Shown here one piece after another: positions 14,842 through 50,471 of a DNA stretch of 64,000 bases (positions within the stretch are counted from its first letter, which is position 1; every line of letters starts with the position of its first letter). The stretch comes from a virus: positions 1 through 64,000 of IMG/VR virus record IMGVR_UViG_3300037264_003220, one strand, 5' to 3'. Below the pieces are notes generated by a model. It had not been told where the DNA came from, searched no databases, and worked only from the letters and a program-made list of their open reading frames with translations. A program made the translations under genes and the position numbers.

Positions 14842-16266
14842 TCAGTTTTTCTGTGCAACAATAACGTCTAAATATTGAAAAGTGAATGTTCCCAGGATGC
14901 TGTCTGTCCCAGGAGCTTGAGAACTTGTGCCAGGCGCTTGAGAATCAGTCGCTGGGGTCGCATTGCCTGTGGCTGCGCCATGGGTATGGCTTCCTTGCGT
15001 ATCAGTTCCTGTGGACGCTTGAACGCTTGTGCTGCCGCCAGCGTAACTTCCCGTATTGATTGCATTGGATAGGAAATATTGGAAAGGCTGTGATAAAACC
15101 CCAAGTGGCGAACCGCCACCAAAAATCATGACATTTGTACCTGTGGCAACAATGTCCCCTGAATATCCCCATGGCGGTGATGGATTCCCAGCAACAACGT
15201 GGGTGTCCGACCCAGCAACATTAGCTCTTAAAACATGAGTTGCGTGCTTGTGGTCAATGGCTGATTGAGTAATGGGATGCGTATGGCTATTGATGGTGTG
15301 GCTATGAGACCCGTCAGCGCTGATTCCGTGAGAGTGACTATTGACCGTATGAGCATGACTGTTGACCGTGTGCGAGTGAGAATTAACGGTATGGCTGTGA
15401 GACAGGGCGAAGCCAGCTGACAAGGCAGACGACCCACCTGTGCCTCCACCCGCGCCATTGACGACGCGCAAGGCTCTATCGTTCATGGAAACAACTTGAG
15501 TCCATCCAGAAGGAGGCGCCGCCATGTAAAACACTTGGACAGTGCCTGTCTGGTTGAACCCTATACCAGACCCAGCGTAAGACGCTGAATTGATTCTGTC
15601 TTGATTGATTGAGCCTGCTTTAATGCGAGTTCCGTCAATATTGAAGTCCGTAAAGCGCTGGCGGTAAGGAACTGGGAAGTCTCCAACAACAAGCATGGAA
15701 CTTCCAATGAAATAAGTTCCAGTTTGAAGGTCGGTTTGCGTGGAATAAAACACTAAAATATTGAGCGTGGTCGCGCTGGCGCTCATAACCTTGGTAATGT
15801 TTAAGGTTTGGTAAGAAGCTCCGCCAGGGTGATATCCACTGTACGACACAGAAATTCCATCATCAATGCCGACACGAACGACATTGGCAAGAGAGCTATA
15901 AACGCGAACGGACAAGGAAACGGTTTGCCCTTTATAATTTAAAGGGTTTATGACGGCCTGAGAAATAGACAGAGCGCCGGAACCAACGCCAATATTGGTG
16001 ACGACGACTTTCATGGCGTAATTGCCGACATCAACCTGGGCGCCAATATCTCCCGTAGCAGCCCTGTTGACCGTGAAAGATGGAGGAGTCGCGCCGGATT
16101 TGAATGCCAACCATGCGTCTAAGGTCGCAGACCCATTAGTTGGATTGGTGTAGAGCGTACCGCCATTCACTTGGTCGGTATCAAAGCCTCCATTTAAAAG
16201 GAGATTTTCATGAACGCCATACGCTTTGACGCTGCCCCTCGGCGATATCTCCCAAAATAATCCCAT
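14842..16266 (-). CDS. Tail fibre/receptor-binding protein (CBM-like domain, collar-like domain, HxH repeats)
   Basis: NLLLNGGFD domain; F..AAPPSGW...NDRALRVV collar; repeated SHSHT metal-binding motifs; Y.DVI.AQK end. Confidence 0.85.
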   Translation of the reverse strand: MGLFWEISPRGSVKAYGVHENLLLNGGFDTDQVNGGTLYTNPTNGSATLDAWLAFKSGATPPSFTVNRAATGDIGAQVDVGNYAMKVVVTNIGVGSGALSISQAVINPLNYKGQTVSLSVRVYSSLANVVRVGIDDGISVSYSGYHPGGASYQTLNITKVMSASATTLNILVFYSTQTDLQTGTYFIGSSMLVVGDFPVPYRQRFTDFNIDGTRIKAGSINQDRINSASYAGSGIGFNQTGTVQVFYMAAPPSGWTQVVSMNDRALRVVNGAGGGTGGSSALSAGFALSHSHTVNSHSHTVNSHAHTVNSHSHGISADGSHSHTINSHTHPITQSAIDHKHATHVLRANVAGSDTHVVAGNPSPPWGYSGDIVATGTNVMIFGGGSPLGVLSQPFQYFLSNAINTGSYAGGSTSVQASTGTDTQGSHTHGAATGNATPATDSQAPGTSSQAPGTDSILGTFTFQYLDVIVAQKN

Positions 16267-16290
16267 GACTGACTCCTTGTCTGTTTTCTT

Positions 16291-16677
16291 TTAAGATTGC
16301 TGCAAATTACAAAATTGAACGCTTTGTAAATCGCATTCATTTTGAATGATGGATGAAGCCAATTCTATTTGAGTTCCCGTTGTCGGCAATCCTCGCCCAA
16401 GAGCAATGGCTTGAACTTCTCCAAGCGTCAACGACATCATTCTGAGGTAATGCAGATATTGCGACCTTGGCCCGCCTGCCAATGGATATTGGCTCATGGT
16501 TCCGCATGTTTTGCACTCAACATTGATTTGTGAAAAATTGGTTAATCCATTAGAGTTGACGGAATATGGCAATGTCGCCACATCAATATCTTGACTGATA
16601 CCATCATTGTGCACGACATCAACTTTGTACCCACCCACATCGGTCATGTTTAAAACGTATACGGTTTGAACTGGCAT
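16291..16677 (-). CDS. Hypothetical fibre-associated protein (CxxC)
   Basis: 128 aa, AGGAGG RBS. Confidence 0.65.
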   Translation of the reverse strand: MPVQTVYVLNMTDVGGYKVDVVHNDGISQDIDVATLPYSVNSNGLTNFSQINVECKTCGTMSQYPLAGGPRSQYLHYLRMMSLTLGEVQAIALGRGLPTTGTQIELASSIIQNECDLQSVQFCNLQQS

Positions 16678-16706
16678 TTCTTTTTCCTCCTAATTATTTT
16701 CTTAAA

Positions 16707-17156
16707 TTAATAAGCAACCAAGTGCGCACTAAAATTCGTATCACCTGCGCTGCCGCCACCGACAGAAACGGTTTTGGTTCCGCCCGAAACTGCGACGGTC
16801 ACATAAGCAGTGTCGCCAGCCCCCATATCACAAAGAACAGGGAAATTAATTGATAGGCTGCCAGTGGCTGCCGCAACGCCATCAAAAATTAAATAAGTTC
16901 TAGCCGTAGTGATTAAGCTAATTTTTCTACCTGTATGAGTTACTAACAAAGCTTCCAAATAAACAGTTACGTTGAATTGATATTTCCCTGCAACAGGAGC
17001 GGTAAATGTGTACGTTGAAATATTGTAATTATTCGCAATATCAAAACGCTCTGTGGCGAATGGAACCGTGACGATAGTCCCGTCGCCAGTTGCATTGGTC
17101 GTCTGCCCGACATAACTGGCTAAAAAAGCGACTGATTCAATATTTGTTCGTGACAT
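16707..17156 (-). CDS. C1q/TNF-like domain protein
   Basis: AF.A...V.F....FD...NYN..T..FTAPVAG.YQF...GD...V...FS.HL. Confidence 0.85.
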   Translation of the reverse strand: MSRTNIESVAFLASYVGQTTNATGDGTIVTVPFATERFDIANNYNISTYTFTAPVAGKYQFNVTVYLEALLVTHTGRKISLITTARTYLIFDGVAAATGSLSINFPVLCDMGAGDTAYVTVAVSGGTKTVSVGGGSAGDTNFSAHLVAY

Positions 17157-17168
17157 AAAAACACCTTT

Positions 17169-20397: not shown

Positions 20398-22101
20398 TCA
20401 TGAAGCCGTTGCCGTCCAATTAAATGCCATTCTAACAGGTCTCTGTCCACCTATGGTCTTTGAAGCTCTCAAAGAAAATCCGCGTAACAAATGGTCAGTG
20501 ATGCCAAGAACAAAAGTGTAACTTGATACCGCATTCGTCAGTCCCAGCCCATCCTCGTAAATCTGCACATTGCTCAATGCGAGCACGGGGTTGGATAGCT
20601 TTATCGTATTAAAATCAATGTCGTCATCAATATAATAAGTTGTGTCGTCTGATGCTCCATATTTCGAAAAATCATTATAGCCAAGTTCAAAATATCTTTG
20701 GCAGCGCTGCCATTCTTCGGCAGGGCTGAGAGGAGCGAACGCCAATGCAGACGTGCTTTGAGAAAACATGGCATTGTCGATATAGCAAGTTTGGCTGGCA
20801 CTTATCTCAATTGAAACAGACAAAGATGAAATGCTGGCTCCGATGGTTCTCAGGGCAGTTAAAGTTTCATATGAGCCTGTGCCGACATTGACAGATGAAG
20901 AAGTCGAGCCATTGCTGTCGGTTATTTTGACGATAATTGTTCCTACGGTTCCTGGTCTCACACGAACCGTCAATGAGACATCTTGACCTTGAAGTTCTTT
21001 AAAATTTTCAATGCTTTGGGATATCGACACCACGCCAGACGATATCGTAGAAATGACTTTCATAGCATACGCACTTCTATCCACGGCAGTGCCTTCCTGA
21101 GAAACCGTGGCAGCGTTCGAGCCGAGAGCCAAGCTCCAACGGTCGGCAGTGACGCCATTGGATGTAAAACCGTTGGCGCCCCGCTGCCAAATACTAAATC
21201 CGCCATTCCCAAGAATATTTATAGTCGCACTGCCAGACCCTACAGTGATATTTGAAATGCGAATTTTGTTCCCTGCGGTCAATGTTTCAAGCAGGATATT
21301 CGTCCCGCCTTCGAAATTCACGTTATCAGTTAAGGTGATGCCGCCGACCTGAGCAATGGTCGTAACAACATTCCCAGCCGCTATTTTATCCGAAGTGACC
21401 GCATTGATAGCCAATTTTGAATTGATAACGGCAGAGTCGGAAATGTTTGTAGAAGTGACGGCATTGGTGGATAATTTCGGATTCGTTACCGCTGAATCGG
21501 TGATATTGGTCGTCGCTACAGCATTGACAGCAAGCTTGGAATTGATGACAGCAGAATCTGAAATATTCGTAGAAGTGACCGCATTGACCGCTATTTTTGG
21601 ATTCGTTACAGCAGAGTCGGTAATGTTTGATGTCGCCACTGAGTTGACAGCAAGCTTGGAATTGATGACAGCAGAATCTGAAATATTTGCCGACGTAATG
21701 GCATTGACCGCTATTTTTGGATTCGTTATGGCAGAGTCAGTGACATTGGTCGTCGCTACCGAATTAACAGCAAGCTTGGAATTGATAACGGCAGAATCTG
21801 AAATATTCGTAGAAGTGACAGCGTTGATGGCGAGCTTGGGATTTGTGACAGCAGAGTTTGAAAGCTCTAAAGTGTCAACAGCTCCAGGGGCAATGTCTTG
21901 AGCGATAACAGTGCCATCTGCGATTTTATCTGATGTGACGGAATTGGGTGCGAGCTTGTCATTGGTGATGGCTTGGTCTCTCACCTTTTGAGTGATGATG
22001 GCGCCATCTTCAATTTGAGTCAGACCAACCACCCCGTTAGCGATAACGGGCTGGGTGACTGATTGAGCGCCTAATTCCTGATTTTGGACAAATGTTCGCA
22101 T
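20398..22101 (-). CDS. Tail fibre with 10/20-aa AVT..K[IL]A repeats and CBM-like domain
   Basis: DSAVTNPKIAVNAVTSTNIS repeats; NILGNGGFSIWQRG; RCQRYF. Confidence 0.85.
   Translation of the reverse strand: MRTFVQNQELGAQSVTQPVIANGVVGLTQIEDGAIITQKVRDQAITNDKLAPNSVTSDKIADGTVIAQDIAPGAVDTLELSNSAVTNPKLAINAVTSTNISDSAVINSKLAVNSVATTNVTDSAITNPKIAVNAITSANISDSAVINSKLAVNSVATSNITDSAVTNPKIAVNAVTSTNISDSAVINSKLAVNAVATTNITDSAVTNPKLSTNAVTSTNISDSAVINSKLAINAVTSDKIAAGNVVTTIAQVGGITLTDNVNFEGGTNILLETLTAGNKIRISNITVGSGSATINILGNGGFSIWQRGANGFTSNGVTADRWSLALGSNAATVSQEGTAVDRSAYAMKVISTISSGVVSISQSIENFKELQGQDVSLTVRVRPGTVGTIIVKITDSNGSTSSSVNVGTGSYETLTALRTIGASISSLSVSIEISASQTCYIDNAMFSQSTSALAFAPLSPAEEWQRCQRYFELGYNDFSKYGASDDTTYYIDDDIDFNTIKLSNPVLALSNVQIYEDGLGLTNAVSSYTFVLGITDHLLRGFSLRASKTIGGQRPVRMAFNWTATAS
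21400..21900 (-). repeat. Coding tandem repeat, 60/120-bp period
   Basis: attgat.ac.gcaga.tc.gaaat..t recurs at 21421, 21541, 21661 and 21781. Confidence 0.9.
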
Positions 22102-22114
22102 TGATTACTCCATT

Positions 22115-25100
22115 TTACAGCGAATATATTCCACTTGCTATAATTTTACTCGTATTCGCTGGCACAAAAGTGAAAGCGACATTCAATTGATTGGTCAAAT
22201 ACGTCACTGCGTAATCGTCCGTTACGAATCTTAACACGCCGTTTACGAACACCATCTCATGCCCAGATGTTGGAGTCCCTGGAAGATTGAATACAAAAAT
22301 ATTCGTCAACCCGTCAGGAGAATTAACAGGAAGAACATTGGTAAAGTGTTGATGTTGAGCTGCGAATACTTCGCTCGCCAATTGCGTCAAACCAACGGCG
22401 CCTGCTGCAATCTTCGGTTGAGTCACTGCCAAATCACGAATTAAGGCAGTTGTAATGGATTGAAGCTCGATTTCTGTCAATCCGACGGCGCCAGCCGATA
22501 TTTTGGATTGAGTAATGGCAGAATCCGAAATATTGGTCGAAGTCACTGCGTTGACAGCTAATTTTGAATTGGTAACGGCTGAGTCCGTGATATTGACCGT
22601 GGCAACCGCATTGACGGCAAGCTTTGAGTTCGTCACGGCGAGATTGGACAATTCTAACGTGTCTATGGCTCCTGGAGCGATATCGGCGGCAATGACAGTC
22701 CCGTCGGCAATCTTGTCAGACGTGACCGAATTAGGAGCTAATTTGGCATTGGTGACAGCCAAATCACGAATCAGGCTGGAGATAATGGATTGCAGCTCAA
22801 TCTGCGTCAACCCAACAGCTCCATTGGCAATCCCTGCGCCATTGACCAAGTTCCATGCCAGATTCCCATTCCCGTCATTCTGGGGGAACGTGTTCGACAA
22901 GCCTTGGGCGCCAGGAAGCGCGATAGGATAGGAAGTGACGGCTGCTGGCGCATGAACGGAAATGGCATTTGTCCCTGCTCCAGTTTGTTGAAGTTGCAGG
23001 CTGCCTTTCAGATTTATATCTTGAATAGGAAGACTTGGAGAGCCGACGCTGCGCGTGTTCCCAGTATCAGGAGTCAGGTCTTGATTAAACGCCACATTGG
23101 TCAGATTATTGAGAGCGGTTGATGCTTTTGCATCCAATTGAGTCTGGACATTCCCTGTCAAAGTCGATAGGTAGGATGCTTGCGTGGCAGTCAGGTGATA
23201 ATATTCATTACCAGTCCCGCCTTGCAATCCAGCCAAATCATTGTGACGAGTGACGAGCGGAGTGTGAATGTGGGAATAATGAGTCGTTCCGTCATGAACA
23301 AGATTAATGGTGATGTTGCCAACATTCGTCGTCCGACCATAAAACCGAACCGATAACTCATCTGTCGCGCCAAACCCAGTATAGGCAGGCTGAGCCGTGA
23401 GAACATTTTCAAGAGTCACAGTTGTATCGTTGATTTCTCCAGATTCAACTTGAAATAGATTTCGATGCACGGCATACGCGACGCTGGATTCATTGACATA
23501 CCCGCTTGGCGTTGCGATGGTAACAATCGAAGATGACGTGAATCCTGTAACTTGAAAGGTTTGAGTTGGAGTTTCAATATAGCCGGATAGAGTCATATCC
23601 GCATTGGCATCACCAGCGAGGAATGGAGTGCCGCCAGTAATGGTCGCCAAGCGACTTGTCCCAGACCCTGTGATAGTTACGGTGCCTGCTCCTAAAAAGC
23701 GACGCAAGACTTGCGAGACAATGGTCGAAGTTCCAGATACGACATCGACATACCGATACAAATCAAATTCCCAAATACCGCCATCAAGCTGAGTTCGTCC
23801 TAACGGAGCAGATAAATATCCGCTAATAATGTCCGTGGAATTATTGACGACGACACTATCAGAATGCTCAAGAGCTGTGTCTGGAGCAAATGACAATGTG
23901 AAATTACCATCTGACGACGGCAGGTCATTTAAGAAATAAATAACGCCCGCGCCCGCTGACGTATTGACAGGAGTTCCATTTACCCACTCTATTCCATTAT
24001 ATTGGATGACATCATTCACCGCAGGAGACGCAATAATGACATCGCTCAATTGAGACAGATTCAAAGACATGACTTCAATGCGGATGGCGTTAGAGATGCC
24101 ATCAGAGGTTACGGAGATAGATGGGCTGCCAGCCAATTGAACATTGTCGGTTAAAGTCAGCTGACCATAGGCGGCGATGGTTTTAACAACTTGTCCAGCC
24201 GCTATTTTGTCGCTTGTGACGGCGTTGACCGCTAATTTAGGGTTCGTCACTGCGGAATTGGAAAGTTCCAAAGTATCAACAGCGCTCGGCGCCAGGTCTA
24301 CGGCGATAACAGTTCCATCGGCAATTTTATCGGACGTAACAGAGTTCGGAGCCAGCTTCACATTTGTGACAGCGAAATCACGAATGAGGTTGGTGATAAT
24401 GGCTTGAAGTTCGATTTGCGTAAGCCCGACCGCCCCATCAGAAATTTTCGATTGAATAATTGAGCTGTCACTTATGTTGGTTGACGTTACCGCGTTGACG
24501 GCAAGTTTAGGATTCGTGACGGCAGAGTCAGTAATATTCGCAGTCGCCACGGCATTGGCAGCTAATTTGGGATTGGTGACGGCAGAATTGGACAACTCCA
24601 AAGTGTCGACCGCGCTGGGAGCCAAATCAACAGCAATCACGGTTCCATCAGCAATTTTGTCGGAGGTCACAGAGTTGGGAGCCAACTTCGCATTGGTAAC
24701 GGCGAAATCACGAATCAAATTTGTCACTATGGCTTCAAGTTCTATTTGCGTTACTCCAACAGCCTGAGATGCGATTTTTGGTTGAGTCACGGCTTGGTCG
24801 CGCAATAAACCTGTCAAAATGGCTTGGCTTTCAATTTGCGTCAAACCTACCGCAGCGTTAGCAATCTTCCCTTGCGTCACAGACGTGTCTTGAAGTTTTC
24901 CAGTTGAAACAGACACATCCTGAAGTTGACCTGTCGAAATAGATAGCGCGGCGATTTTCGTATTGGTGACAGAATTATCAGCCAAGAGCGCGTTCGTTAT
25001 AGCTTGATTTTCAATCTGGCTCGTACCAACGGCGCCAGATGAAATATGAAGTTGCGTAATGGCATTGATTTGAATGGCAATCCCAGGAACCGAACGCGGG

Positions 25101-25969
25101 GCGAGAACAGGAGTAATAGTGGTCAAGCCTTGAACGATTTCTTGTATTTGGGTTTCCAAAGGAACTGTTAAATGAGCGTTACCAAGATTGGTCAAGACGG
25201 GAGACGTGTAAATGTCTTTGGCGAGCTGGTTAATATTGAGAACTTCTGTAAGGTCGACAGTCCCATTGAAAAATTTGTCACTGGCAGCAAAAGACTCATC
25301 AACAGTATTCATGTTGTAACGCTGGAGATATTGCCAATCAATGACGGTTAATCCTTGCGGGATAGGAGTGACGACTTCAGGTAAATTTGGAGCCTGAGTA
25401 TAAAATGTCAAGAACCATTGCGTAATTCCTGGGTATTCATAAGTGATGCGAGCGTAAATTTCTAAAGAATTAGTGAGCGCGGGTTCGCCAGTATAAGCGT
25501 CTCGTATATAAGCTTGGTTCTTAGGAGAGTCAGCAATAATGCCTTCTCCGACACCTGCCGATGTAGCAGGAGTCGTGGTCAAACCAATAATGCTGGTTAC
25601 TTCCGTATTGGTCATCCCTTGGGAAAGCGCCAATCCATTTGCCTGAACATAGCTGGTTATTTTTTTATATTGAAGGACGGCTTGCTTGGCAGTGGTGTCG
25701 AGTTTGATTCCAATAACAGCGCCATCAATAATATTGGACGAACTAATGGCGTTATCAGCCATTTTTGCGTTGGTAATGGCATTATGTTCAATCTGAGTAA
25801 TACCGACAGCTTCATTGGCTATTTTGAGTTGTGACACGGAAAGGCTGCCAAGCTTGGAATTTGTGACCGCAGAATCGGTCAAGGCGTTCGTGGTGACGGA
25901 ATTAACCGCCATCTTGGTCGCTATTATCGCATCATCTTTTATGTCATCAGATTGAATAAATGTACGCAT
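22115..25969 (-). CDS. Long tail fibre with AVT..K[IL]A repeat blocks
   Basis: 1284 aa; repeat blocks, LSQLSDV...W.N motif, HNDLAGLQGG...EYYHLT motif, GNVQTQLDAK. Confidence 0.85.
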   Translation of the reverse strand: MRTFIQSDDIKDDAIIATKMAVNSVTTNALTDSAVTNSKLGSLSVSQLKIANEAVGITQIEHNAITNAKMADNAISSSNIIDGAVIGIKLDTTAKQAVLQYKKITSYVQANGLALSQGMTNTEVTSIIGLTTTPATSAGVGEGIIADSPKNQAYIRDAYTGEPALTNSLEIYARITYEYPGITQWFLTFYTQAPNLPEVVTPIPQGLTVIDWQYLQRYNMNTVDESFAASDKFFNGTVDLTEVLNINQLAKDIYTSPVLTNLGNAHLTVPLETQIQEIVQGLTTITPVLAPRSVPGIAIQINAITQLHISSGAVGTSQIENQAITNALLADNSVTNTKIAALSISTGQLQDVSVSTGKLQDTSVTQGKIANAAVGLTQIESQAILTGLLRDQAVTQPKIASQAVGVTQIELEAIVTNLIRDFAVTNAKLAPNSVTSDKIADGTVIAVDLAPSAVDTLELSNSAVTNPKLAANAVATANITDSAVTNPKLAVNAVTSTNISDSSIIQSKISDGAVGLTQIELQAIITNLIRDFAVTNVKLAPNSVTSDKIADGTVIAVDLAPSAVDTLELSNSAVTNPKLAVNAVTSDKIAAGQVVKTIAAYGQLTLTDNVQLAGSPSISVTSDGISNAIRIEVMSLNLSQLSDVIIASPAVNDVIQYNGIEWVNGTPVNTSAGAGVIYFLNDLPSSDGNFTLSFAPDTALEHSDSVVVNNSTDIISGYLSAPLGRTQLDGGIWEFDLYRYVDVVSGTSTIVSQVLRRFLGAGTVTITGSGTSRLATITGGTPFLAGDANADMTLSGYIETPTQTFQVTGFTSSSIVTIATPSGYVNESSVAYAVHRNLFQVESGEINDTTVTLENVLTAQPAYTGFGATDELSVRFYGRTTNVGNITINLVHDGTTHYSHIHTPLVTRHNDLAGLQGGTGNEYYHLTATQASYLSTLTGNVQTQLDAKASTALNNLTNVAFNQDLTPDTGNTRSVGSPSLPIQDINLKGSLQLQQTGAGTNAISVHAPAAVTSYPIALPGAQGLSNTFPQNDGNGNLAWNLVNGAGIANGAVGLTQIELQSIISSLIRDLAVTNAKLAPNSVTSDKIADGTVIAADIAPGAIDTLELSNLAVTNSKLAVNAVATVNITDSAVTNSKLAVNAVTSTNISDSAITQSKISAGAVGLTEIELQSITTALIRDLAVTQPKIAAGAVGLTQLASEVFAAQHQHFTNVLPVNSPDGLTNIFVFNLPGTPTSGHEMVFVNGVLRFVTDDYAVTYLTNQLNVAFTFVPANTSKIIASGIYSL

Positions 25970-40587: not shown

Positions 40588-41127
40588 TTAGAAGCCTTGA
40601 GATTGAAGCGCTGGCGTCTCAACTTGACCGTAAACAATGGTGGCGTTTTCGATTTCTCGAATATCTCCGCCGGACACGTCACGAGTCGAGTCGTATCTGC
40701 TAATCCAAGCATCCTTGTATATCTTCTGCACCACTTCAGTGGCTGGCGCCGAGATATTGGGAGTGCCATCTTGATTGAATTGAGGCGTCGACACGCTTTC
40801 ATGGATTTCAAAAGGCGTATCCATTTCAAAGAGCGTTTGCGTCCCAACTTTGGCTCCGAGAGCTTCCATGAGGTTCGCCCGATACAGCCGAATCCTTTTC
40901 ACGGTAAGCGATTTTTCCCTGACAAGACCAGGAACCATTTCAAATGGTTCGCCAATTCTCTTGCCAAGCGTCGTACCAATCTCAAACGAGGCGGTTACGT
41001 CCCTCGATTCAGACGGGTTGATGGTTTGGATAGCGCCTACATCAACAAGTGCTCCTGCACTATTTTTCACCCTGATGATGTAGGAGGTCGCTAACTGTAT
41101 TCTTGTACTGGCTGGCTTGATGCTCAT
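40588..41127 (-). CDS. Tail tube protein
   Basis: VGAIQ....E.R...EIG, PFEI.E, Y.DAW...Y...I.EN; synteny. Confidence 0.85.
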   Translation of the reverse strand: MSIKPASTRIQLATSYIIRVKNSAGALVDVGAIQTINPSESRDVTASFEIGTTLGKRIGEPFEMVPGLVREKSLTVKRIRLYRANLMEALGAKVGTQTLFEMDTPFEIHESVSTPQFNQDGTPNISAPATEVVQKIYKDAWISRYDSTRDVSGGDIREIENATIVYGQVETPALQSQGF

Positions 41128-42032
41128 TTCGTGTTTCCTCCTGTAATAAATAATTTAGAAATTATTTCTTCGGCAGTTCGTGATTTCAGTTCATGTTCCC
41201 AAATGATTTTTGATTGAATGCCATATTTTGCAAATGCTTTAGTTCTAAATTCAGCATCTTTTTGCTGTTCTACTTCTTTATTAGGATGGCATTTTGGACA
41301 ACCATGCCAATAACAGCCAAAAAGCTCAACGACTTCTTTCTTCCCGTTTACATTGACAAAATCTGGGTTCATGTTTTCAACCCAAAATTTGCCATTGCCA
41401 ACATACTGATAAGGAAGTTTGAATTTTGCAAATGCTTTGATGAATTTTCCTTCAAAACCATTCGGGTGGCTTTGCCCAAATCCACCATGCCCAAGTCTAC
41501 GAATCGCGTGCTCTCTAAGATTATTTTTGACTTTATCTTGATTCGCCCAAAGAGTGACTGCTTTAGAAATATTCCGACAAGTTTCTTTTGACCTTTTTTT
41601 ACCTGTATGCAATTTGCTGATAAATTTCTTGAATTTTTGTGAACGTTTTTTTCCAAGCCATGAGCCGGAATGAGTCGAATACCATTTGTTCAATGATAAG
41701 CTGGTTTTCTTTTTCCATTCATCAGTATGATGCTTGCCAAATAAATAATGTTTTAGACCAGATTGAGCCTTGCTCATTTTTCTTTTTGTCGTTTCGGAAT
41801 GATGCTTCCCAAGCATTCCATATGTTGCGCATCTTGCATCGCCCTTGCGTTGTTCGCTCATTTTTCTTTTTGTTTTTTCACTATGGCGTTTCCCTTTCAT
41901 TGGGCTGATTCTTCCAATTTGGCTTAAACCAATATTGGCTCTACGCTCGGCAGACAATGTTCTGCCGAGTTTCGCCAGACGCATTTTGCGCCTAGTTTTC
42001 TCAGATATATGACTACCGAGCATAGAACTCAT
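41124..42032 (-). CDS. NUMOD3-repeat Vsr/DUF559-like homing endonuclease
   Basis: Several GK.HSE.TKRKMS repeats; PDF, VELFGCYWH, IWEHE. Confidence 0.88.
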   Translation of the reverse strand: MSSMLGSHISEKTRRKMRLAKLGRTLSAERRANIGLSQIGRISPMKGKRHSEKTKRKMSEQRKGDARCATYGMLGKHHSETTKRKMSKAQSGLKHYLFGKHHTDEWKKKTSLSLNKWYSTHSGSWLGKKRSQKFKKFISKLHTGKKRSKETCRNISKAVTLWANQDKVKNNLREHAIRRLGHGGFGQSHPNGFEGKFIKAFAKFKLPYQYVGNGKFWVENMNPDFVNVNGKKEVVELFGCYWHGCPKCHPNKEVEQQKDAEFRTKAFAKYGIQSKIIWEHELKSRTAEEIISKLFITGGNTK

Positions 42033-42045: not shown

Positions 42046-43398
42046 TTATAGTGCCGAGTTCACGAATATACTGAACGAAACATTCACGAAACGAAGTGGA
42101 AACACGGGCGCGATTTCAAACGACACATTCACCTGGCGCGGGTCAACAGAGTCAAGTTTGGCACTGATATTGCGGAACGCCGTAATAAGAGTCGAGCTGA
42201 TGAAGTTCGACAGAATCGCCTGAACACTGGCTTGAATATTGCTCAGACTTCCTGTCAACAGCTTCGTACCGATGTATCGGGTATTCAGCGTGTCTCTTAC
42301 GACTTTACGCAATAAGTCTTTGATGCGCCGAACACTGGGTTCGACACGTTCAATGCTGGATGTGTCAGTCGTCGACGCTTCCTTCACATAGACTCCATTG
42401 GAATCCTGTTGGAGGATAGTCACGCCAGAGCGAAGCATGAACAGAATTTCGCTTCTGATGTATTTGTAGCTATTCACGTCGAGACGAGACGGCAGCCGTT
42501 TCCGTAGAAGCGGCGTAGCCGCGTCATTGGCGGTTTCAATGCCAGCAAGAGCCGCCCCAGCATAAACTGAGGAAACCACGAGCCGAGCATCAGTAGTCGT
42601 TCCCACATCTTTCAACGTAATCCCGACAGACGGAGGAGCAACCATATTCACGCGGTCGCTATTGATTCCGTCAGCAAGAGTGCCAATGGTCTGCACGGTG
42701 TCATTCAGATTCGCCGGAGCAATCCAAGCATGACGTTCTTTCTGATTGAAGTCGGTCGACATCGCCTGCACATGGTTAATGACGGCGCTTCTCACTTGCG
42801 TATTGGTCACGCCAGTCACAATCAAGGTATCAACTTCTTCCCGCTCTAATTGAGTCAAGGCATCAATATACGAGCTGGTCTGCCCATCAACGGCTTGACA
42901 GGTGACGACGATGGTTCCGTCTCCTCCTGATTCAAATGTCAACAGCGCAGCCAAAGTGATTTCGCTGATGACCCCATTATTCAATTCTGCTCCGTAAATC
43001 GCTCGAACATCGTCAATGCTGAACAATGTTTTCGGCGTGTAATAAGTGGCGTCTTTCACTAATTTATACGACACATAATAAAGCGCCGCCGTAGAAGGCT
43101 GTTGACCAATCCACACAATCGTATTGTTGACGATGTTGTAGTCAACTCCTGCTACAAAGTCGAAAAACCCTGGGGAACTTCCCACTCCAAGAACCGAAGC
43201 GACGTTGCTGACGGTCGTGTTTGGGATAGTGTCAGTGCCGTTGAAGGCACCTTTGGTCACTTCGGCATTATCCACTTCCACGGTGGCGCTCGCAGTGCCG
43301 ACAATCCCAGTGACATTCACTGTCCCCGCTCCAATCGCCAACGACGGGTTTTCAATTTCAGAAACAACCACACCAGATTCTCTAACTGTTACTGACAT
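42046..43398 (-). CDS. Contractile tail sheath protein
   Basis: GVVV.E N-terminus, H...MS....ER, GV..L, E.SV.RI.D, P.FPL.F. Confidence 0.9.
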   Translation of the reverse strand: MSVTVRESGVVVSEIENPSLAIGAGTVNVTGIVGTASATVEVDNAEVTKGAFNGTDTIPNTTVSNVASVLGVGSSPGFFDFVAGVDYNIVNNTIVWIGQQPSTAALYYVSYKLVKDATYYTPKTLFSIDDVRAIYGAELNNGVISEITLAALLTFESGGDGTIVVTCQAVDGQTSSYIDALTQLEREEVDTLIVTGVTNTQVRSAVINHVQAMSTDFNQKERHAWIAPANLNDTVQTIGTLADGINSDRVNMVAPPSVGITLKDVGTTTDARLVVSSVYAGAALAGIETANDAATPLLRKRLPSRLDVNSYKYIRSEILFMLRSGVTILQQDSNGVYVKEASTTDTSSIERVEPSVRRIKDLLRKVVRDTLNTRYIGTKLLTGSLSNIQASVQAILSNFISSTLITAFRNISAKLDSVDPRQVNVSFEIAPVFPLRFVNVSFSIFVNSAL

Positions 43399-43412: not shown

Positions 43413-44096
43413 TTAAAAGTTCGGGTCTGTAATACCATCAACAATCGTTATAAGACCGTTGACATCTGGTATTTGAATCTTGTCAATCAATTCAGCTTCG
43501 GCTATGGACAATGTGTCTTCAAATTCGGTGTAAACTTCAACATTCAATTCGTGAGAGAAAATAGGGTCATTGCCTATTTTTTCATAACTTTCTCCGACAA
43601 GATTAATATCGGTTATCTCAATTCCAGCAATTCTGAATTTTTCAAAAACCAAAAATCGCAGCGCCGAGATAAGCTTATCCGTAATTCTCTCAACTTTCTT
43701 GGGGTTATAATCATAGACCTTAATGTTGACGCTCAAATTTAATGGGCCGCCGTATCTTTCGCCTACGACTCCTGTCTGAGTCATGCCGTTTAAAAATACG
43801 TCACCCATCAATGGCTCTTGAAACTCTCTATTCAAGGAACGGAAGAAGCTTCTCCCGCCGACAATATCAACCACGATAATGGGATAAATTCGGAACTGAA
43901 CAGGAAAATGCTCAACTACGGTAATCTTCGTCGTCTTGTTGTCGGCGTTCCAAGTAAAGTCTGTATCAGACGCCGGAACAGGCGGTGACTGTTCAGGAAA
44001 TTGCGCGTCCGGCAACCCGCTTATGGCGAAAAATTGCTGGATTATGCTGATGAACGTCATTCGTGTAAATCGTTTCGCGCGTAAAATCATCAGCAC
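43413..44096 (-). CDS. Tail terminator/completion protein
   Basis: Immediately upstream of sheath; YP.I.V motif. Confidence 0.6.
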   Translation of the reverse strand: MLMILRAKRFTRMTFISIIQQFFAISGLPDAQFPEQSPPVPASDTDFTWNADNKTTKITVVEHFPVQFRIYPIIVVDIVGGRSFFRSLNREFQEPLMGDVFLNGMTQTGVVGERYGGPLNLSVNIKVYDYNPKKVERITDKLISALRFLVFEKFRIAGIEITDINLVGESYEKIGNDPIFSHELNVEVYTEFEDTLSIAEAELIDKIQIPDVNGLITIVDGITDPNF

Positions 44097-44974
44097 GCCC
44101 CTCCTTGTAAATATGGAGCCAACAAGTCTGGCGCTATCAATTGTGGATGTTTATAAGCCAAGTCTGTACGTTCCAGCTCATTCATTTCAAAATCCTGATG
44201 CGTAATCAGGTCACGTTGAAAATAAGGCGTCACGTTCAAAATTTCAAATCGTCTATTTTCTCGGTCAATCAAAATATCCCTATCATGCAGTCTAGGCGTC
44301 CAAATCGTCCATGACCGTGGAACTCGCTGCTTCCTGAGTCCATACGTCGCCAGTTCTTTCAAAGCTGCCATGTTGTAATACCGAACCCTAATTTTGATAG
44401 GGTTAAAATAAGTCACTGTGTCGGCGCGACCATAATCTTCTTCTGTGTTGGCATTGATTTCTTTCTGTTGGCGCTTAAACAGCCAAAAATCGCCGCCATC
44501 CTGCTCCAAAAGCCACATATTTCGGCGCCTTATTTCTTCAAAGAAAAATTTCTGCTGGATGTTGGTCGGATACATGCCGCTGCGCGATTCAATCGTGACC
44601 GTGCTAATTTTTGTCTGTGGGGCTGTGAAAGTCATATTCATATCCCCAAAAGGAGACACGTCAAACGCTGGCAAATTCTCATATGTAATCGGATTCGACG
44701 GCGGACTTTCACCAAGCAAATTCACCGACGTAACGGAATAATACGGGTCTGTGTCGATAATAATAGGGACATTGCTATCTAAGAAACTCGTCGACTGAAT
44801 CAAAGACACATTCAATTTCGTGAAATCACCATACGGCGTATAATTTCGATAAACATTAAATCCGCTCACGCCATTGAGTGCGTCCCAATAAAGACGCACT
44901 TGCGTCTCAGGGAGATTTTGCCCTGTTGCCAACAGATTGCGAGCTATGACGTTACTAGGCGGTACGCATGACAT
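44090..44974 (-). CDS. Neck/head-closure protein with N-terminal FN3-like domain
   Basis: L.W....GFNVYR...F.D...YY.VT.VN..GES.PS; C-terminal W....P.L..RD.L....RF.I. Confidence 0.7.
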   Translation of the reverse strand: MSCVPPSNVIARNLLATGQNLPETQVRLYWDALNGVSGFNVYRNYTPYGDFTKLNVSLIQSTSFLDSNVPIIIDTDPYYSVTSVNLLGESPPSNPITYENLPAFDVSPFGDMNMTFTAPQTKISTVTIESRSGMYPTNIQQKFFFEEIRRRNMWLLEQDGGDFWLFKRQQKEINANTEEDYGRADTVTYFNPIKIRVRYYNMAALKELATYGLRKQRVPRSWTIWTPRLHDRDILIDRENRRFEILNVTPYFQRDLITHQDFEMNELERTDLAYKHPQLIAPDLLAPYLQGGAC

Positions 44975-45449
44975 AATCAATAACTCCACTCGATGCTAAT
45001 TCATTCGGACTGACCAGTGTCTCTTTCACAGATGTCAATGGGAACCCTGCCTTTTTATAAGCTTCATCAACCCATCCAGAACAAACTTGGTGACAATGCA
45101 AAAGTCCCATTCTTCCCAAAACCATATCAATAAAGCTGTAATGCTCTCCAATATTCAAATAACACCATGAAATAGCTCGTGTTTTAATAATGTCTCCACA
45201 CATGGGTCGATAAATAACTTTCGCTCTTATATCATCAGCGATGAATCGAAATCGTGGGCGCGGCCACACCATTTCAACCGCTAAATCAGGCTCGGTACTC
45301 ACCATCGCCACATGTGTATACCCTGGATAAGTCATCTTCCCCATCTCGCCACCAATCTTCTGAAGCCAGGAAAATATTCGATGTTTCCAATTCCCATCAT
45401 CTGGATAAAAAATCAAATCTCCTGGCTTCAAAATACTCACTGCGTTCAT
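44955..45449 (-). CDS. Permuted papain-like (NlpC/P60, YiiX-like) enzyme
   Basis: PGDLIF, THVAM (His), Y, CS..V..AY (Cys), SP.EL. Confidence 0.8.
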   Translation of the reverse strand: MNAVSILKPGDLIFYPDDGNWKHRIFSWLQKIGGEMGKMTYPGYTHVAMVSTEPDLAVEMVWPRPRFRFIADDIRAKVIYRPMCGDIIKTRAISWCYLNIGEHYSFIDMVLGRMGLLHCHQVCSGWVDEAYKKAGFPLTSVKETLVSPNELASSGVIDYVMRTA

Positions 45450-46087
45450 TGAAAAAATTCCGTTAAAATATTGAAATATTTTATTTCTGTCGCGCTTAGT
45501 CCATTCGGACAATAACAATGAACCCGAAGTTTCATATATGTCGGGAATGCCATTGATTCATCACTAAGAAAGCTTAATTGAACTCCTGATGCAGTGTGAA
45601 CATTCTGAATCATATTTGGCATCAACATTTGGTCTGTTGGATTCATTAAAACGTCGGCGCTAATGTAATCATTTTCGTCATTAAAGTTTGAATAAAGATG
45701 CCCGCCACGGAAATAAACCGTTGCAGGCCAAGACAAATCTACAAATGAATATGTCATTCCTGGCGCCACAATTGCTTGAAATCCTTTCCATTTGTTGTAA
45801 GTATTTGCAGGCTGCGGAGAAATGGATACCCTAGCGGGGCGCCCAACCCCTGCGCGAATAATCAAAGATTGATTAAATGAAGCCATGTAATTATTCTCGA
45901 ATTCCGTAGCATCTGGATTCGCACTTCCGTCAATTAATTTAGGCAAATCGTATTGCCAATTAATGCCATTAGAGTCAGGCCCAACGAGACGGTAAGAGCT
46001 ACCAATATCAACATACTGATTGGTAAGTCCTTTAGAAATAATGCAGAGATTTTTAAAGTCAGCCCACGTTTTAATTATTAATTCCAT
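45446..46087 (-). CDS. Hypothetical virion-associated protein
   Basis: W.DFK...D...FE.NY motif; within late operon. Confidence 0.65.
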   Translation of the reverse strand: MELIIKTWADFKNLCIISKGLTNQYVDIGSSYRLVGPDSNGINWQYDLPKLIDGSANPDATEFENNYMASFNQSLIIRAGVGRPARVSISPQPANTYNKWKGFQAIVAPGMTYSFVDLSWPATVYFRGGHLYSNFNDENDYISADVLMNPTDQMLMPNMIQNVHTASGVQLSFLSDESMAFPTYMKLRVHCYCPNGLSATEIKYFNILTEFFQ

Positions 46088-49000
46088 TAAACTTCCTCCA
46101 CCCATTCCACAACATAACTAAAGTTCCCACCTGTAACGGTGACTCCATTAAAGTTGACGGCTACCCCTTCTCCCGCGCCGCGCAAAGTAATAGCTTTATC
46201 TGGTTTAAGAGCCAAAAATAAATCATAAGGCGGAGAAGTCGTAGCGCCAGATGAGCCAGGTGCGACAGCTGGAATCATCATGCGGTATGACGCTGTTGTC
46301 CCGACTGCCGCGCCAAGCCCAGTCGGATTAGCCGTATAAGAACGAACTGTTGCCGTGGCTGCCGCATCTGTCGAATCATGCGAGACAGCTGTTTGCAAAG
46401 CAGATGTCCCACCCGTGTTCACGGCGGAACGTTTAATTAAACGCACATCTTCAATGCTTTGAGTTGTTTGCGAACCAGATATGGCAATTCGCATAATGCG
46501 AATAGTTTTTGTTGCAGACCCATAAATCGTAAACACATCTGTTGCTGTTGCCGCAGAAGCAATGCTGGGAGCAGAAGCGGAATACGTAACTTGTTCTGAC
46601 GTGCCTTGCAAAGCAACCTTTAAACTGCCCGCTTGCGTCAATGCTCGCGGTAACGCTTCAACAACTGGGCACAGCGCAGTCAATAATCTCAAATAAGTTG
46701 TCGCTATCGCTCCATTATTCGTTACCAATATTCTGAAATATAAACACACGGCTTGAAATGTCCTGCCGTCTCCAATTCCAGCTCGCGGAGTGAATGAATC
46801 AACAATATCCCAATTAACATTGTCGGTTGATTGTTGAACTTGAATAGTGCAATCCTGGCTCGCAATGAAATTAATTTGTATCCCAGAAATTCCTACAGTT
46901 GTTTCACCAGCGCCTGTAAAAGTAGCCCCAGCAGCCAAATTTGCAGTAGAGTTATTAGATTGAGATGTTTCAACATCCTGAGTAATGCCAACAGCTAAAT
47001 AACGATTGTTGTTCCGAACTATCCCTTCCATATACCCAACGCCATCTGTCACTCGAACAGGCAAATAATTTAAAGCAGAAAGCGTTAAACCATTTACAAG
47101 TGTCAAGTTTTCAGGAATCGCTGTTTGGTCTGCGGCAACGACAACAGGTAAAGACCCGCTCATTGCTTTTTGCCCATTTGTAAGACCAATAACGGCAGAC
47201 GAAACAATGGTGGTAAGTTGACTGACCTGCTGCGATTCATAAAGTTGAATCGTCGTCAATTGAGACACTTCAAGTGCCACGGCAGCATTCAAATTACTTA
47301 ACTGCGTTATCTCTTGAGACATTAAAACATTGGCTGTTAATCCATTTACGACCTGTTGACTATTGGACGAATTCAATGTGCTGAGTTGGGCAACTTCTTG
47401 AGCCAATGTCGTATTGATTGTCGTTAATTGAGTTATTTCTAAAACTACGGCAGCGTTAAGATTTGAAAGCTCAGTGACTTCTTGACTCGATAAAACTATT
47501 TGAGCCGCTTGAGCTGACGCCGTTGCCACGGAAGTATTAAGAGTTGACAATTGAGCCACTTGTTGACTTTCATAAAGTTGGATGGTTGTGAGCTGCCCCA
47601 CTTCAACGGACACAGCCATATTTAAGTTAGAAAGTTGAGTAATTTGTTGAGAAACAAGAATATTTTCAGCACTCTCAAAACCAGTGTTTGAAATAATTTG
47701 AGATAGCTGAGAGACCTCTTGAGCCAACAAAGAGACCTGGTTATCGCTGGACGTGTTCAATGTTGAAAGCTGAGCAACCTCTTGGACTAAAGTCGTATTG
47801 ACAGTCGTTAATTGAGAAACCTCTAAAGCAACGGCTAAATTGAGATTGGTTAATTGATTAACCTGTTGAACCATCAAATAAACATCCGAATCTGGCGTCG
47901 TCAAAAGTTGTGATAACTGAGAAACTTCTTGCGCTCCATATAATTGCAATGTCGATAATTGAGTTATCTCCTGAGATAAATAGGGACGAGTGTCGATTGA
48001 TGGAGACCCCGTATTGGTCATAATCTGAGACAACTGAGAAATTTCCTGGGAGCCGTATAGTTCAAGCGTTGTCATTTGAGTCACAACGTTTGACAGCCTG
48101 GCATCAATCGAAGTCAATTGCGAAACCTGTTGAGCCTCGTAAATTCCAATCGTGGTCAGTTGAGCCACTTCCAGAGAAACAGACACCTCAAGATTGCTGA
48201 GTTGACCAACTTGCTGAGCGCCATAAAGCTCAAGCGTTGATAATTGAGTTATTTCCTGAGCTAAATAAGGGCGAATGTCGACTTGAGAAACGCCAGTGTT
48301 GGCGATAATTTGAGAAAGCTGCCCTACCTCTTGAACCAATAAAGTTGTCTGAGCATCTTGTTTATTTTGAACTTGCGTAAGCTGTCCGACCTGCTGCGAT
48401 TCATAAAGTTCGATTGTCGTTAATTGAGTAACGACAGTGGACAGGCGCCCATCAATACTGGTCAATTGCGCGACCTGTTCGTACTCATACAGACCGATAG
48501 TCGTCAATTGACTAACTTCTAAAACAACGGAAACATTCAAATCGTTGAGTTGTGAGATTTGTTGAGAGCCATAAAATTCAATCGTGGAAAGCTGAGAAAC
48601 TTGCTGATTTAAGATGGGCCTCGTATCAATATCGGCTACGCCAGTGTTGGTGATAATTTGACTTAATTGTGAAATTTCATGAGATAATAATACGGTCTGG
48701 TCTTGCTGGTTTGTTTCGACCTGAGAAAGTTGAGCAACCTGTTGATTGGCGACAACAACAATATTGGTTAAACCGTCTTGAAGTGATTCTGTTGTAGATT
48801 TAATTTTGTCGAAAGTTTGAGTAAATCCATCGGCAATGGTGGCGATAGAAACGCGATTCAATAATTCCAATTCATCCGTATTAAGATTTATGCTGTCGAC
48901 GTTAATAGACAGCCCAGCCAATGATTGCAGGATGCTTAACTGAGTCGCTTCTGTAGAAACGCGAATTTGAATATCGGACAATTGACCGACTTCTTGAGTC

Positions 49001-49197
49001 AATAATAAAGATATGTCACTTAATTGACTGACTTGCTGAATCGTCCCAGTAGTTTCGACCGCTATTTTATTAAGCGCATCCGAATCTTCCTGAGATAAAT
49101 TGACAGTGCCTACTCTCGCCGATATTTCTCTGCCAGTTGTGCCGTCGGCATTATGAATATTGACATCGTTGCCGCCTGTTATTCCACCAAAACTCAT
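46087..49197 (-). CDS. Ser/Thr/Gln-rich coiled-coil fibre with about 30 [QE][VI]xQL[ST] repeats
   Basis: Repeats with about 14-aa period; GQK.M..SLPVV.A.DQ motif; beta-rich C-terminal domains. Confidence 0.75.
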   Translation of the reverse strand: MSFGGITGGNDVNIHNADGTTGREISARVGTVNLSQEDSDALNKIAVETTGTIQQVSQLSDISLLLTQEVGQLSDIQIRVSTEATQLSILQSLAGLSINVDSINLNTDELELLNRVSIATIADGFTQTFDKIKSTTESLQDGLTNIVVVANQQVAQLSQVETNQQDQTVLLSHEISQLSQIITNTGVADIDTRPILNQQVSQLSTIEFYGSQQISQLNDLNVSVVLEVSQLTTIGLYEYEQVAQLTSIDGRLSTVVTQLTTIELYESQQVGQLTQVQNKQDAQTTLLVQEVGQLSQIIANTGVSQVDIRPYLAQEITQLSTLELYGAQQVGQLSNLEVSVSLEVAQLTTIGIYEAQQVSQLTSIDARLSNVVTQMTTLELYGSQEISQLSQIMTNTGSPSIDTRPYLSQEITQLSTLQLYGAQEVSQLSQLLTTPDSDVYLMVQQVNQLTNLNLAVALEVSQLTTVNTTLVQEVAQLSTLNTSSDNQVSLLAQEVSQLSQIISNTGFESAENILVSQQITQLSNLNMAVSVEVGQLTTIQLYESQQVAQLSTLNTSVATASAQAAQIVLSSQEVTELSNLNAAVVLEITQLTTINTTLAQEVAQLSTLNSSNSQQVVNGLTANVLMSQEITQLSNLNAAVALEVSQLTTIQLYESQQVSQLTTIVSSAVIGLTNGQKAMSGSLPVVVAADQTAIPENLTLVNGLTLSALNYLPVRVTDGVGYMEGIVRNNNRYLAVGITQDVETSQSNNSTANLAAGATFTGAGETTVGISGIQINFIASQDCTIQVQQSTDNVNWDIVDSFTPRAGIGDGRTFQAVCLYFRILVTNNGAIATTYLRLLTALCPVVEALPRALTQAGSLKVALQGTSEQVTYSASAPSIASAATATDVFTIYGSATKTIRIMRIAISGSQTTQSIEDVRLIKRSAVNTGGTSALQTAVSHDSTDAAATATVRSYTANPTGLGAAVGTTASYRMMIPAVAPGSSGATTSPPYDLFLALKPDKAITLRGAGEGVAVNFNGVTVTGGNFSYVVEWVEEV

Positions 49198-50471
49198 ACG
49201 GTTCCTCCATTTGCATAAATCTGCAAATTCGTCGTCACTGTAGTTGTGACGTATATTTTTTCCGCGTTCTGCCAATTAAAATCAAATTGACCCTTAAACA
49301 CGGGAATCGGCGTACTCAATGTTGAATTAAATTTCACAGATACTGGCTGCGACACCGACAAATAAACATCCTGCATCCGTGCGCCAAAATCATAAAGAAC
49401 GTCCGTTAATCCAGCTGCCTGAGTCGCCTCATTTACATAATACTTTCCATGAGGCGAAGCGATAGTGACACTAACAGAAAGCCCTTCCAAAGTTTGCAGG
49501 ACGCTCAACTGCGTCACTTCTTGATTTAACGTCGTTGAACTAAAGTTGAAACACAGTCCCTGCAAATCTTGAAGGATGCTCAACTGCGTCACTTCCTGAG
49601 CCAAAGAAGGAGCGTCAAAATTGATGCACAATCCTTCCAACTCTTGAAGAATACTCAGTTGCGTCGTTTCTTGAGCCAATGCCGGAGAGTCAAATGTCAA
49701 TCCTTGCAGCTGGCTTAAAATACTAAGCTGAGTGACCTCAGTTGAAACACGAATTTGAATATCTGAAAGTTGAGTCACTTCTTGAGATAAAAGACTCTCA
49801 ACGCTTAAAGACTGTTGACGAATAAGACTCTCCAATGTGCTCAACTGCGTCACTTCCTGGGCGACCAAAGTAATAATATTGGTCAACCCTTCGAGCAGCT
49901 CAAGCTTCATGTCAGTCAATCCGTCTTGAATGGAGATAGTGGACGATTGCATGGTCGCCAACATGAGCGTTATTCCATCGGCAACCGTGGCAGTGTTAAG
50001 CCTCATCAATAATTCAAGCTCGTCCGTGTTGACATCAATCTTCCCAATATTGATGCACAGCCCGTTTAAGGCACTTATAATGTTTGTCATGCCTTCGCTA
50101 TTGGAAACAATCAGCTTATCCAAAAGCGCAATTTGTGTAAGCTGGCTAGATTCCTGAGCCAACGTCGGACTTTCAACGCTCAGGCTCCACATCCCATCCG
50201 CATTTGGTAATGCTTCAAGGTCATGCTTTAACCCTTGAGTGTCAATTCCCTGAATAATAACTTTGCCAATGGTGATTGGCGGCAGCGAAATTTCCGTATT
50301 AACCGTCAGCGCGTATTGGTCTGTGGTTCCGTCGACCAACGCAACTTGCAGCGGGACAATCACTCCATCAGAGCGCTGCCCCGCCAATACAGAAACCCAT
50401 TCCGAGTCTGCGCTCCTCGGAAAGTGTTTCTTATTGAGATTCGGATGCCATTCAGGGAATGTTTCTGACAA
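49194..50471 (-). CDS. Second QEVTQLS-repeat virion protein
   Basis: Shares NTDELELL and LSDIQIRVSTE segments with 46087-49197; about 25-aa tandem repeats. Confidence 0.75.
   Translation of the reverse strand: MSETFPEWHPNLNKKHFPRSADSEWVSVLAGQRSDGVIVPLQVALVDGTTDQYALTVNTEISLPPITIGKVIIQGIDTQGLKHDLEALPNADGMWSLSVESPTLAQESSQLTQIALLDKLIVSNSEGMTNIISALNGLCINIGKIDVNTDELELLMRLNTATVADGITLMLATMQSSTISIQDGLTDMKLELLEGLTNIITLVAQEVTQLSTLESLIRQQSLSVESLLSQEVTQLSDIQIRVSTEVTQLSILSQLQGLTFDSPALAQETTQLSILQELEGLCINFDAPSLAQEVTQLSILQDLQGLCFNFSSTTLNQEVTQLSVLQTLEGLSVSVTIASPHGKYYVNEATQAAGLTDVLYDFGARMQDVYLSVSQPVSVKFNSTLSTPIPVFKGQFDFNWQNAEKIYVTTTVTTNLQIYANGGTV

Follow-up and report, generated by a model that had tools for sequence, protein, structure and literature searches.

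In C. difficile, the glycosyltransferase (GT) SgtA, which consists of a GT-A domain and four tetratricopeptide repeats (TPR), is encoded just upstream of bclA3 and, as described in PMC7157674, places N-acetylglucosamine (GlcNAc) on the Thr of G-P-T, with Ser also accepted. According to the account in PMC6405829, SunS, ThuS, and PalS attach a sugar to the Cys of a G-C-G-G/S loop located after a helix; SunS requires the helix before the loop Cys, and ThuS also modifies Ser, forming both O- and S-links. Listeria GmaR is described as a GT domain plus TPR that transfers GlcNAc to flagellin (PMC9638930), and phage-encoded GTs of mycobacteriophages are reported to modify the virion proteins of the phages themselves (Freeman et al. 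2023, as cited in PMC12619734). Herein, we analyzed a GT cluster and the adjacent repeat fibres in the IMG/VR virus record IMGVR_UViG_3300037264_003220. The phage genome measures 90,280 bp. Its first 64 kb make up the window, that is, the whole stretch of DNA under analysis, of which the minus strand carries nearly all genes. An initial annotation of this DNA had proposed that the tripeptide G-h-[STC], where h is [LIMVF], is a glycosylation acceptor written by the phage across structurally unrelated virion proteins. The observation behind this proposal was accurate, and the virion-wide code is not supported. Instead, the tripeptide is probably a part of three unrelated repeat designs in four fibres.

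The largest protein of the cluster (819 aa) carries PF00535 at residues 514-647 and TPR_1/TPR_2 at 720-780, and its third GT-A domain is directly followed by TPR, as in the architecture described for GmaR and SgtA (an N-terminal GT-A of about 180-260 aa, then TPR). DxD motifs lie near residues 95, 343, and 592. Apart from TPR proteins, the best PDB matches of this GT-A plus TPR module were GmaR (22ao, E 2e-21, residues 506-691), SunS (7msp/7msn, E 1e-13), and 7msk (E 2e-8), with the SunS chain aligned over its residues 56-278. The best NCBIfam match was the SunS model TIGR04195 (67.8 bits, E 7.8e-19, cut-off 350), in which residues 508-747 of the protein fell on model positions 56-283 of 421, and tblastn with the module matched yolJ of SPbeta. 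The SunS-type enzyme guessed in the initial annotation therefore had support from sequence, although the model score was far below the cut-off. From these alignments, the module appears to be of the protein-glycosylating kind, outside the SunS equivalog. The middle GT-A (residues 226-470) showed similarity to Anp1 and to procollagen galactosyltransferase 1 (E about 4e-7). With the flanking GT2 domains it forms a fusion of three enzymes, so that the glycan may contain several sugars.

Like the SgtA-BclA3 pair in its published description, the locus places a soluble GT-A and TPR enzyme directly upstream of a repeat-built fibrous surface protein, and the acceptor Thr of SgtA stands two residues after Gly, as in G-h-Thr here. 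However, the fibres have no collagen-like repeats, a hydrophobic residue stands in the middle instead of Pro, and the 819-aa enzyme is a fusion of three GT-A domains, in contrast to SgtA as published. A GT-A-TPR enzyme beside a repeat fibre, known here as gene adjacency, would be a further case of the SgtA-BclA3 kind. The 819-aa protein also shares with SunS, ThuS, and PalS the combination of a GT-A domain and a helical repeat domain, whereas the described substrates of those enzymes are small secreted disulfide peptides with G-C-G-G/S, and the candidate here would be G-L-C-[VIF]-N of a repeat protein of 425 aa. When the Gly-Cys-Gly-Gly/Ser loop was looked for, the Cys of the 425-aa family were all found in G-L-C-[VIF]-[NT] instead. 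Neither precursor-peptide nor transporter genes turned up in the family scans of neighbouring open reading frames (ORFs), which were not aimed at them. In its published account, GmaR likewise has an N-terminal GT-A of ~180 aa followed by TPR, and its substrate is a filament protein that is modified in the cytoplasm. The 819-aa protein lacks the antirepressor domain of GmaR. To our knowledge, no acceptor motif is known for GmaR. The mycobacteriophage glycans are described at the C-termini of capsid and tail-tube subunits (PMC12619734), whereas the tripeptide considered here is internal and lies in fibres.

To quantify the tripeptide, 63 ORFs were each compared with an expectation from 2000 composition shuffles, and counts are given below as observed vs expected. 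Pooled counts were taken for four repeat fibres, 22 other virion proteins, the genes at 50473-63875, those at 64-90 kb, and 21 early ORFs. Clear enrichment was found in just four of the 63 ORFs, namely those of the 425-aa fibre-like protein (10 vs 1.6), a 1062-aa ORF (11 vs 4.1), the 1284-aa tail fibre (16 vs 5.2), and the 567-aa tail fibre (8 vs 2.5), giving 45 vs 13.6 when pooled. The 1062-aa ORF extends over 46087-49275; its 1036-aa form, 46087-49197, has a start backed by the stored protein P0009. The counts of 10, 11, and 16 in the first three, taken manually in the initial annotation, were thus exact, that of 11 for either start. The relative G001, a whole genome of 146,629 bases, reproduced the main picture, with 46 vs 14.2 in the orthologues of the four fibres.

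Beyond the four fibres, the proposed code across unrelated virion proteins did not emerge, as the 22 other virion proteins contained 36 vs 31.9 sites (P 0.25). The genes at 50473-63875 contained 10 vs 8.4, and 25 ORFs at 64-90 kb 24 vs 17.6 (P 0.08). The tetrapeptides cited for small virion proteins (a gp25-like protein at 31233-31988, and the ORFs at 43413-44096, 45446-46105, and 16291-16677) were each found, but these proteins had nominal P values of only 0.02-0.15, a range that also includes the homing endonuclease at 54269-55024 (3 vs 0.68, P 0.027) and that is expected by chance among 63 tests. The label of terminator for 43413-44096 was without family support, and where 45446-46105 has KGLT, each of the four orthologues examined reads ALL or ALM. 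The SNF2 and DUF932 proteins indeed had no site; as a contrast this is unremarkable, because only ~1.1 was expected in each. In favour of a code, many virion proteins have sites, most of which are retained in relatives (such as all three sheath sites, with Thr in L001), and the other virion orthologues of G001 showed a slight excess (43 vs 32.6, P 0.037). However, N-h-[STC], a control motif of no proposed function, was more enriched in the same 22 proteins (39 vs 24.6, 1.6-fold, P 0.005), and retention over the whole G001 genome was 25/32 in virion proteins, not significantly above the Ser/Thr baseline of 0.64 and not significantly different from the 17/28 (4/8 plus 13/20) of non-virion proteins. 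The 21 early ORFs at 1-14818 held fewer sites than expected (2 vs 8.8, P 0.0055); the G001 orthologues of 12 of them had 5 vs 4.9, and this depletion was taken as chance or an effect of ORF calling.

Within the four fibres, the residue after G-h was Thr in 34 vs 8.6 cases, Ser in 8 vs 7.6, and Cys in 3 vs 0.2. A second expectation was 7.1 for Thr and 6.2 for Ser. Because Thr was in excess and Ser at expectation, the signal consists of G-h-Thr and three GLC, indicating no hydroxyl/thiol class of the kind that had been thought to be conserved. Thr after Gly and a nonhydrophobic residue was at expectation (18 vs 16.7), and the motif G-x-T-[GA] was enriched in no group (6 vs 3.8 in the four fibres, 10 vs 9.3 in the other virion proteins). 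A second control motif of no proposed function, A-h-[STC], was enriched 2.4-fold in the four fibres (48 vs 20.2). GLT was only tenth among the enriched tripeptides of the two GT-adjacent proteins, with QLS and QLT ranking above it. Between the four fibres and G001, Ser, Thr, or Cys was retained at 31/38 G-h, 30/40 A-h, and 35/46 Q-h sites. Repetition accounted for a further part: 14 of the 45 fibre sites lay in two repeat contexts (8 and 6), so that collapsing by context left 33 clusters, and a dipeptide-aware expectation for the four proteins was 24.2. After the composition correction the enrichment was gone outside the four fibres, and with collapse and dipeptide correction applied jointly an excess of ~1.4-fold was left inside them.

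The first design occurs in the two tail fibres, where the unit A-V-G-[LIV]-T-[QE]-[IL]-E accounted for 8 of 24 sites. It is in register with the basic 10-residue unit A-V-T-x-x-K-I-A, over which internal duplication spread it; A-V-G-L-T-Q-I-E would be a variant of the basic unit copied eight times in this way. The second design may be a [DE]-G-[LIMF]-T-[ND] junction in the 'NTDELELL' module, which is common to the 425-aa protein and the 1036-aa protein (the N-terminal part of the latter is paralogous to the former) and in which six sites share [DE]-G-[LIMF]-T.

The third design belongs to the 425-aa protein, which is laid out as a conserved N-terminal beta domain, the 'NTDELELL' module with four [DE]-G-[LIM]-T, four repeats of 23-25 aa, and a C-terminal beta domain. 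As first observed, the four aligned repeats (residues 244-341) end in QGLT, EGLC, QGLC, and EGLS, and all three Cys of the protein lie in GLC. The repeats were identical pairwise at 10 to 16 of 25 residues, and the codons at the variable position were ACA, TGC, TGT, and TCT, with Cys-Ser and Ser-Thr one base apart each. Here G-L-[C>S>T] would form a step between a QEVTQLSILQEL segment and a short, strand-like L-C-V-N-I segment. The class of G-L-[C/S/T] repeats comprised six sites, including QGLT at residue 281 of the 1284-aa fibre, which was grouped by identity of context and stands outside the 25-aa repeats. Eight homologues of the 425-aa protein were found among 5.8 billion proteins, and a profile search of 1.84 billion representatives returned 36 matches, most of them through the C-terminal domain or the repeats alone; the names of the distant homologues were not informative. 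The exchange of Thr, Cys, and Ser at one repeat position proved real across these homologues, although it was confined to the repeats of this family. The first repeat of the window protein has Thr where the orthologues show Cys, Cys was found before x-N and Ser before [IV]-[ST], and the Gly was replaced twice in homologues (NLS, ESLS). The C-terminal beta domain (YDFG...QIYANGG; residues ~340-425, 49194-49460, minus strand) also occurred as stand-alone proteins of 98-310 aa (P0037-P0063).

What is known of helix capping suggests a structural role of G-h-[S/T/C]. Most likely, the Gly would end a secondary-structure element such as a helix, the hydrophobic residue would pack, and the small polar residue would open the next element. 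The repeat region of the 425-aa protein resembles leucine-rich repeats (LRR) in its period of 23-25 aa and its L..L..L..L.V pattern, and it matched PDB 4u08 (E 3e-5) and the LRR proteins P0058 and P0061, all below the cut-off. P0061, a true LRR protein retrieved with the family profile, has 17 GLT within its repeat units. Pfam LRR_14 was matched by four of nine family members (best E 1.9e-4), with 9.8 bits for the window protein against a cut-off of 40. Unlike in LRR, L-C-V-N-I fits LxxLxLxxN only with a shift of one residue. As the matches were weak, their registers disagreed, and none reached a curated cut-off, LRR membership of the 25-aa repeats was set aside and is kept as a lead only.

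Several findings weigh against the tripeptide being a matter of repeat design alone. The window protein and P0001-P0006 together have 20 Cys, each of them in G-L-C-[VIF]-[NT], and the repeat position was Cys, Ser, or Thr, in the order C>S>T, and never Ala or Val, which is what a requirement for a nucleophile would predict. Known GT-A-TPR enzymes are also described as using Thr in G-P-T (SgtA) and Cys after a helix (SunS). The fibre excess outlasted each correction taken alone (33 clusters vs 13.6; 45 sites vs 24.2) and remained when the sequences were shuffled in 20- or 40-residue blocks. The comparison with relatives lacking the GT cluster rested on four distant homologues of the tail fibres, encoded by phages with no PF00535 domain; they had 17 sites vs ~18.4 in total, indicating that the excess is confined to the GT-bearing lineage studied here. 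For seven virion proteins that lack repeats and are encoded near the fibre genes, the Ser/Thr of the motif was retained in 23 of 27 orthologue comparisons (baseline 0.65), which represent nine sites and are hence mutually dependent, whereas in neighbouring non-virion proteins it was retained in one of seven; over the whole G001 genome this contrast weakened to 25/32 vs 17/28. The fibre excess is thus lineage-specific and incompletely explained. We place little weight on it, because the A-h and N-h controls were enriched as well and GLT ranked only tenth. Local composition was considered as its cause and rejected, since the 20- and 40-residue block shuffles gave the same expectation as the global ones.

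A stronger candidate for an acceptor was found in the two GT-adjacent proteins, in which QLS occurred 24 vs 1.8 times and QLT 13 vs 2.0 times. In the 1036-aa protein, the 14-residue repeat x-x-[QE]-[VI]-x-Q-L-[ST] forms an array of 32 units (19 of the 31 gaps have a spacing of 14), and Ser or Thr followed Q/E-L/M in every unit (Ser 19, Thr 13). If a hydroxyl group kept without residue identity is taken as the mark of an acceptor, as it was in the initial annotation, Q-L-[ST] is far stronger than G-h-[STC]. The array has hydrophobic spacings of 3, 3, 2, and 6, unlike those of a plain heptad coiled coil or of a canonical LRR. In the related contig L010, the GT-A-TPR module (GT-A 74% and TPR 78% identical to that of the window) lies directly upstream of P0007, a homologue of the 425-aa protein with no Cys and no GLC repeats, indicating that Cys cannot be the conserved acceptor of the module. 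P0007 retains [DE]-G-[LI]-T at four places and Q-L-[ST] at six, and is followed by three more Q-L-[ST] fibres with 18, 7, and 21 such sites. P0008 likewise has no Cys. The chance that the two fibres beside the GT are glycosylated at all was judged to be about even; if they are, Q-L-[ST] in the 14-residue repeat is a likelier conserved acceptor than G-L-[C/S/T].

As a possible, if tentative, alternative, the GT cluster may act on a host envelope polymer or another phage product rather than on the fibres, having been inserted by the fibre genes in the manner of a moron. Its nearest PHROG families are 'auxiliary metabolic gene and host takeover' and GtrB-like, the second GT domain is of the Anp1/collagen galactosyltransferase type and the others are generic GT2, and the short relatives of the third domain were mostly unnamed GT2 proteins without informative names. 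However, the family matches imply no membrane segment, although no search was aimed at one, and the TPR fusion together with the similarity to GmaR and SunS indicates a protein substrate. The linkage to the fibres also speaks against a target elsewhere. Among the related contigs compared (L001, L008, L009, and L010), GT and fibre genes were adjacent in every one, with 425-aa homologues 51-58% identical: the GT gene lay directly upstream of the homologue in the window, L001/G001, L008, and L010, and L009 contained the 3' end of the GT only. The best-conserved parts of the 819-aa protein were the third GT-A (74-84% identity) and the TPR (78-80%). A metagenome scan yielded four loci, each with the GT wherever upstream DNA was present; scans of viral contigs with P0007, P0006, P0047, and P0012 gave no new gene context.

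An acceptor motif limited to the two neighbouring fibres is unlikely; the GT-A-TPR enzyme would there glycosylate Cys, Ser, or Thr in G-L-[C/S/T], and might also use Thr in [DE]-G-h-T. By analogy with the helix and loop Cys of SunS and the G-P-T of SgtA, such an enzyme would recognize a helix followed by a Gly-initiated turn. The module's similarity to GmaR and SunS would suit this, as would the GT gene directly upstream of the 425-aa homologue in all three related contigs with the whole upstream gene (L001, L008, L010), the restriction of the repeat position to Cys, Ser, and Thr with every one of the 20 Cys in place, the O- and S-links described for ThuS, and the acceptance of Ser by SgtA. 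The two proteins together had 21 sites vs ~5.7. However, the module stands beside a homologue without Cys or GLC repeats in L010, P0007 and P0008 are free of Cys, and the Gly is sometimes lost. The S-glycosylated Cys of the published enzymes lies in G-C-G-G/S and not in G-L-C-x-N, the SunS model score is low, and the choice among Cys, Ser, and Thr follows the downstream context (GLC-x-N vs GLS-[IV]-[ST]), as a packing role predicts. We regard it as quite improbable that the G-L-C-[VIF]-N position, whether Cys, Ser, or Thr, is S- or O-glycosylated by the adjacent GmaR/SunS-like enzyme. That one phage enzyme set glycosylates G-h-[S/T/C] throughout the virion, from tail and baseplate to sheath and fibre proteins, is barely credible, in view of the 36 vs 31.9 sites, the unexceptional retention, the stronger N-h control, the unconserved KGLT, and the equal P value of a homing endonuclease.

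The coordinates of the features are collected in Table 1.

Table 1. Coordinates of the features discussed, in positions of the 64-kb window
Feature	Position	Strand	Remarks
425-aa fibre-like protein	49194..50471	-	10 G-h-[STC] sites
Four repeats, residues 244-341	49449..49742	-	form QEVTQLSILQELQ-G-L-[T/C/C/S]-x-N/S; weakly LRR-like
1036-aa fibre-like protein	46087..49197	-	11 G-h-[STC] sites
32-unit array of 14-residue repeat x-x-[QE]-[VI]-x-Q-L-[ST]	47179..49044	-	inside 1036-aa protein
819-aa protein, three GT-A domains then TPR	50473..52932	-	Pfam Glyco_tranf_2_4, Anp1, Glycos_transf_2, TPR; PHROG 13126
Third GT-A + TPR module, residues ~506-790	50563..51417	-	protein-glycosyltransferase-like
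237-aa GT2-family glycosyltransferase	52929..53642	-	family scan
209-aa class I SAM methyltransferase	53643..54272	-	family scans
Two tail fibres	20398-25969	-	PHROG 892 + PHROG 4492
1284-aa tail fibre	22115..25969	-	PHROG 892; 16 G-h-[ST] sites, of which a single duplicated 10-residue unit accounts for seven
567-aa tail fibre	20398..22101	-	8 sites, one in AVGLTQIE unit
219-aa protein	45446..46105	-	N-terminal domain W.DFK...K.L.IQY; KGLT unconserved
Baseplate wedge proteins	31233-33433		family scans
Sheath	42046-43398		family scans
SNF2 protein	9428-11122		Pfam
DUF932 protein	5427-6431		Pfam

From the order of genes, the 425-aa and 1036-aa proteins, which lie between head-side and tail genes, are presumably parts of the virion. 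No family of Pfam, PHROG, or NCBIfam was matched by either, and searches of the phage collection with the 425-aa protein and of the PDB with the 1036-aa protein gave no match. The C-terminal ~165 aa of the 1036-aa protein (residues ~871-1035; 46087-46600, minus strand) were shared, at 38-52% identity, with many otherwise different metagenome proteins of 570-1320 aa (P0016-P0036), and ten scanned proteins with this region contained no informative Pfam family. The W.DFK...K.L.IQY domain of the 219-aa protein was also found in the Q-L-[ST]-repeat fibres of related phages. In a related phage, five paralogous genes in a row begin with it, and three of these carry Q-L-[ST] repeats (L009 1940-8099; L010 3725-9758). 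This distribution suggests that the domain may be a shared anchor of an interchangeable fibre set.

Three homing-endonuclease-like genes (54269-55024, 41124-42032, and 26739-27497, minus strand; NUMOD3/HNH; PHROG 314, 13076, 21964, 323) break up the late structural operon, the first two without a counterpart in L001, L008, L009, and L010. A 187-aa protein at 44955-45518 (minus strand) matched no Pfam family, and its match to a ClpP/crotonase-like PHROG was weak (E 5e-7).

If a sequon did hold throughout a virus, glycosylated phage surfaces could be predicted from sequence alone, which matters for how therapeutic phages are recognized by the immune system and for the engineering of host range. 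G-h-[STC] cannot be used as such a predictor, as it behaves like any other tripeptide outside the four repeat fibres. What is left of interest is a three-domain GT, with a GT-A-TPR end apparently of the protein-modifying type, conserved beside two repeat fibres, and a single repeat position that holds every Cys of the family. If that position were S- or O-glycosylated, improbable as we consider this, it would be the first S-glycosylated structural protein of any virus and a case of a glycocin-type enzyme acting on a large repeat protein.

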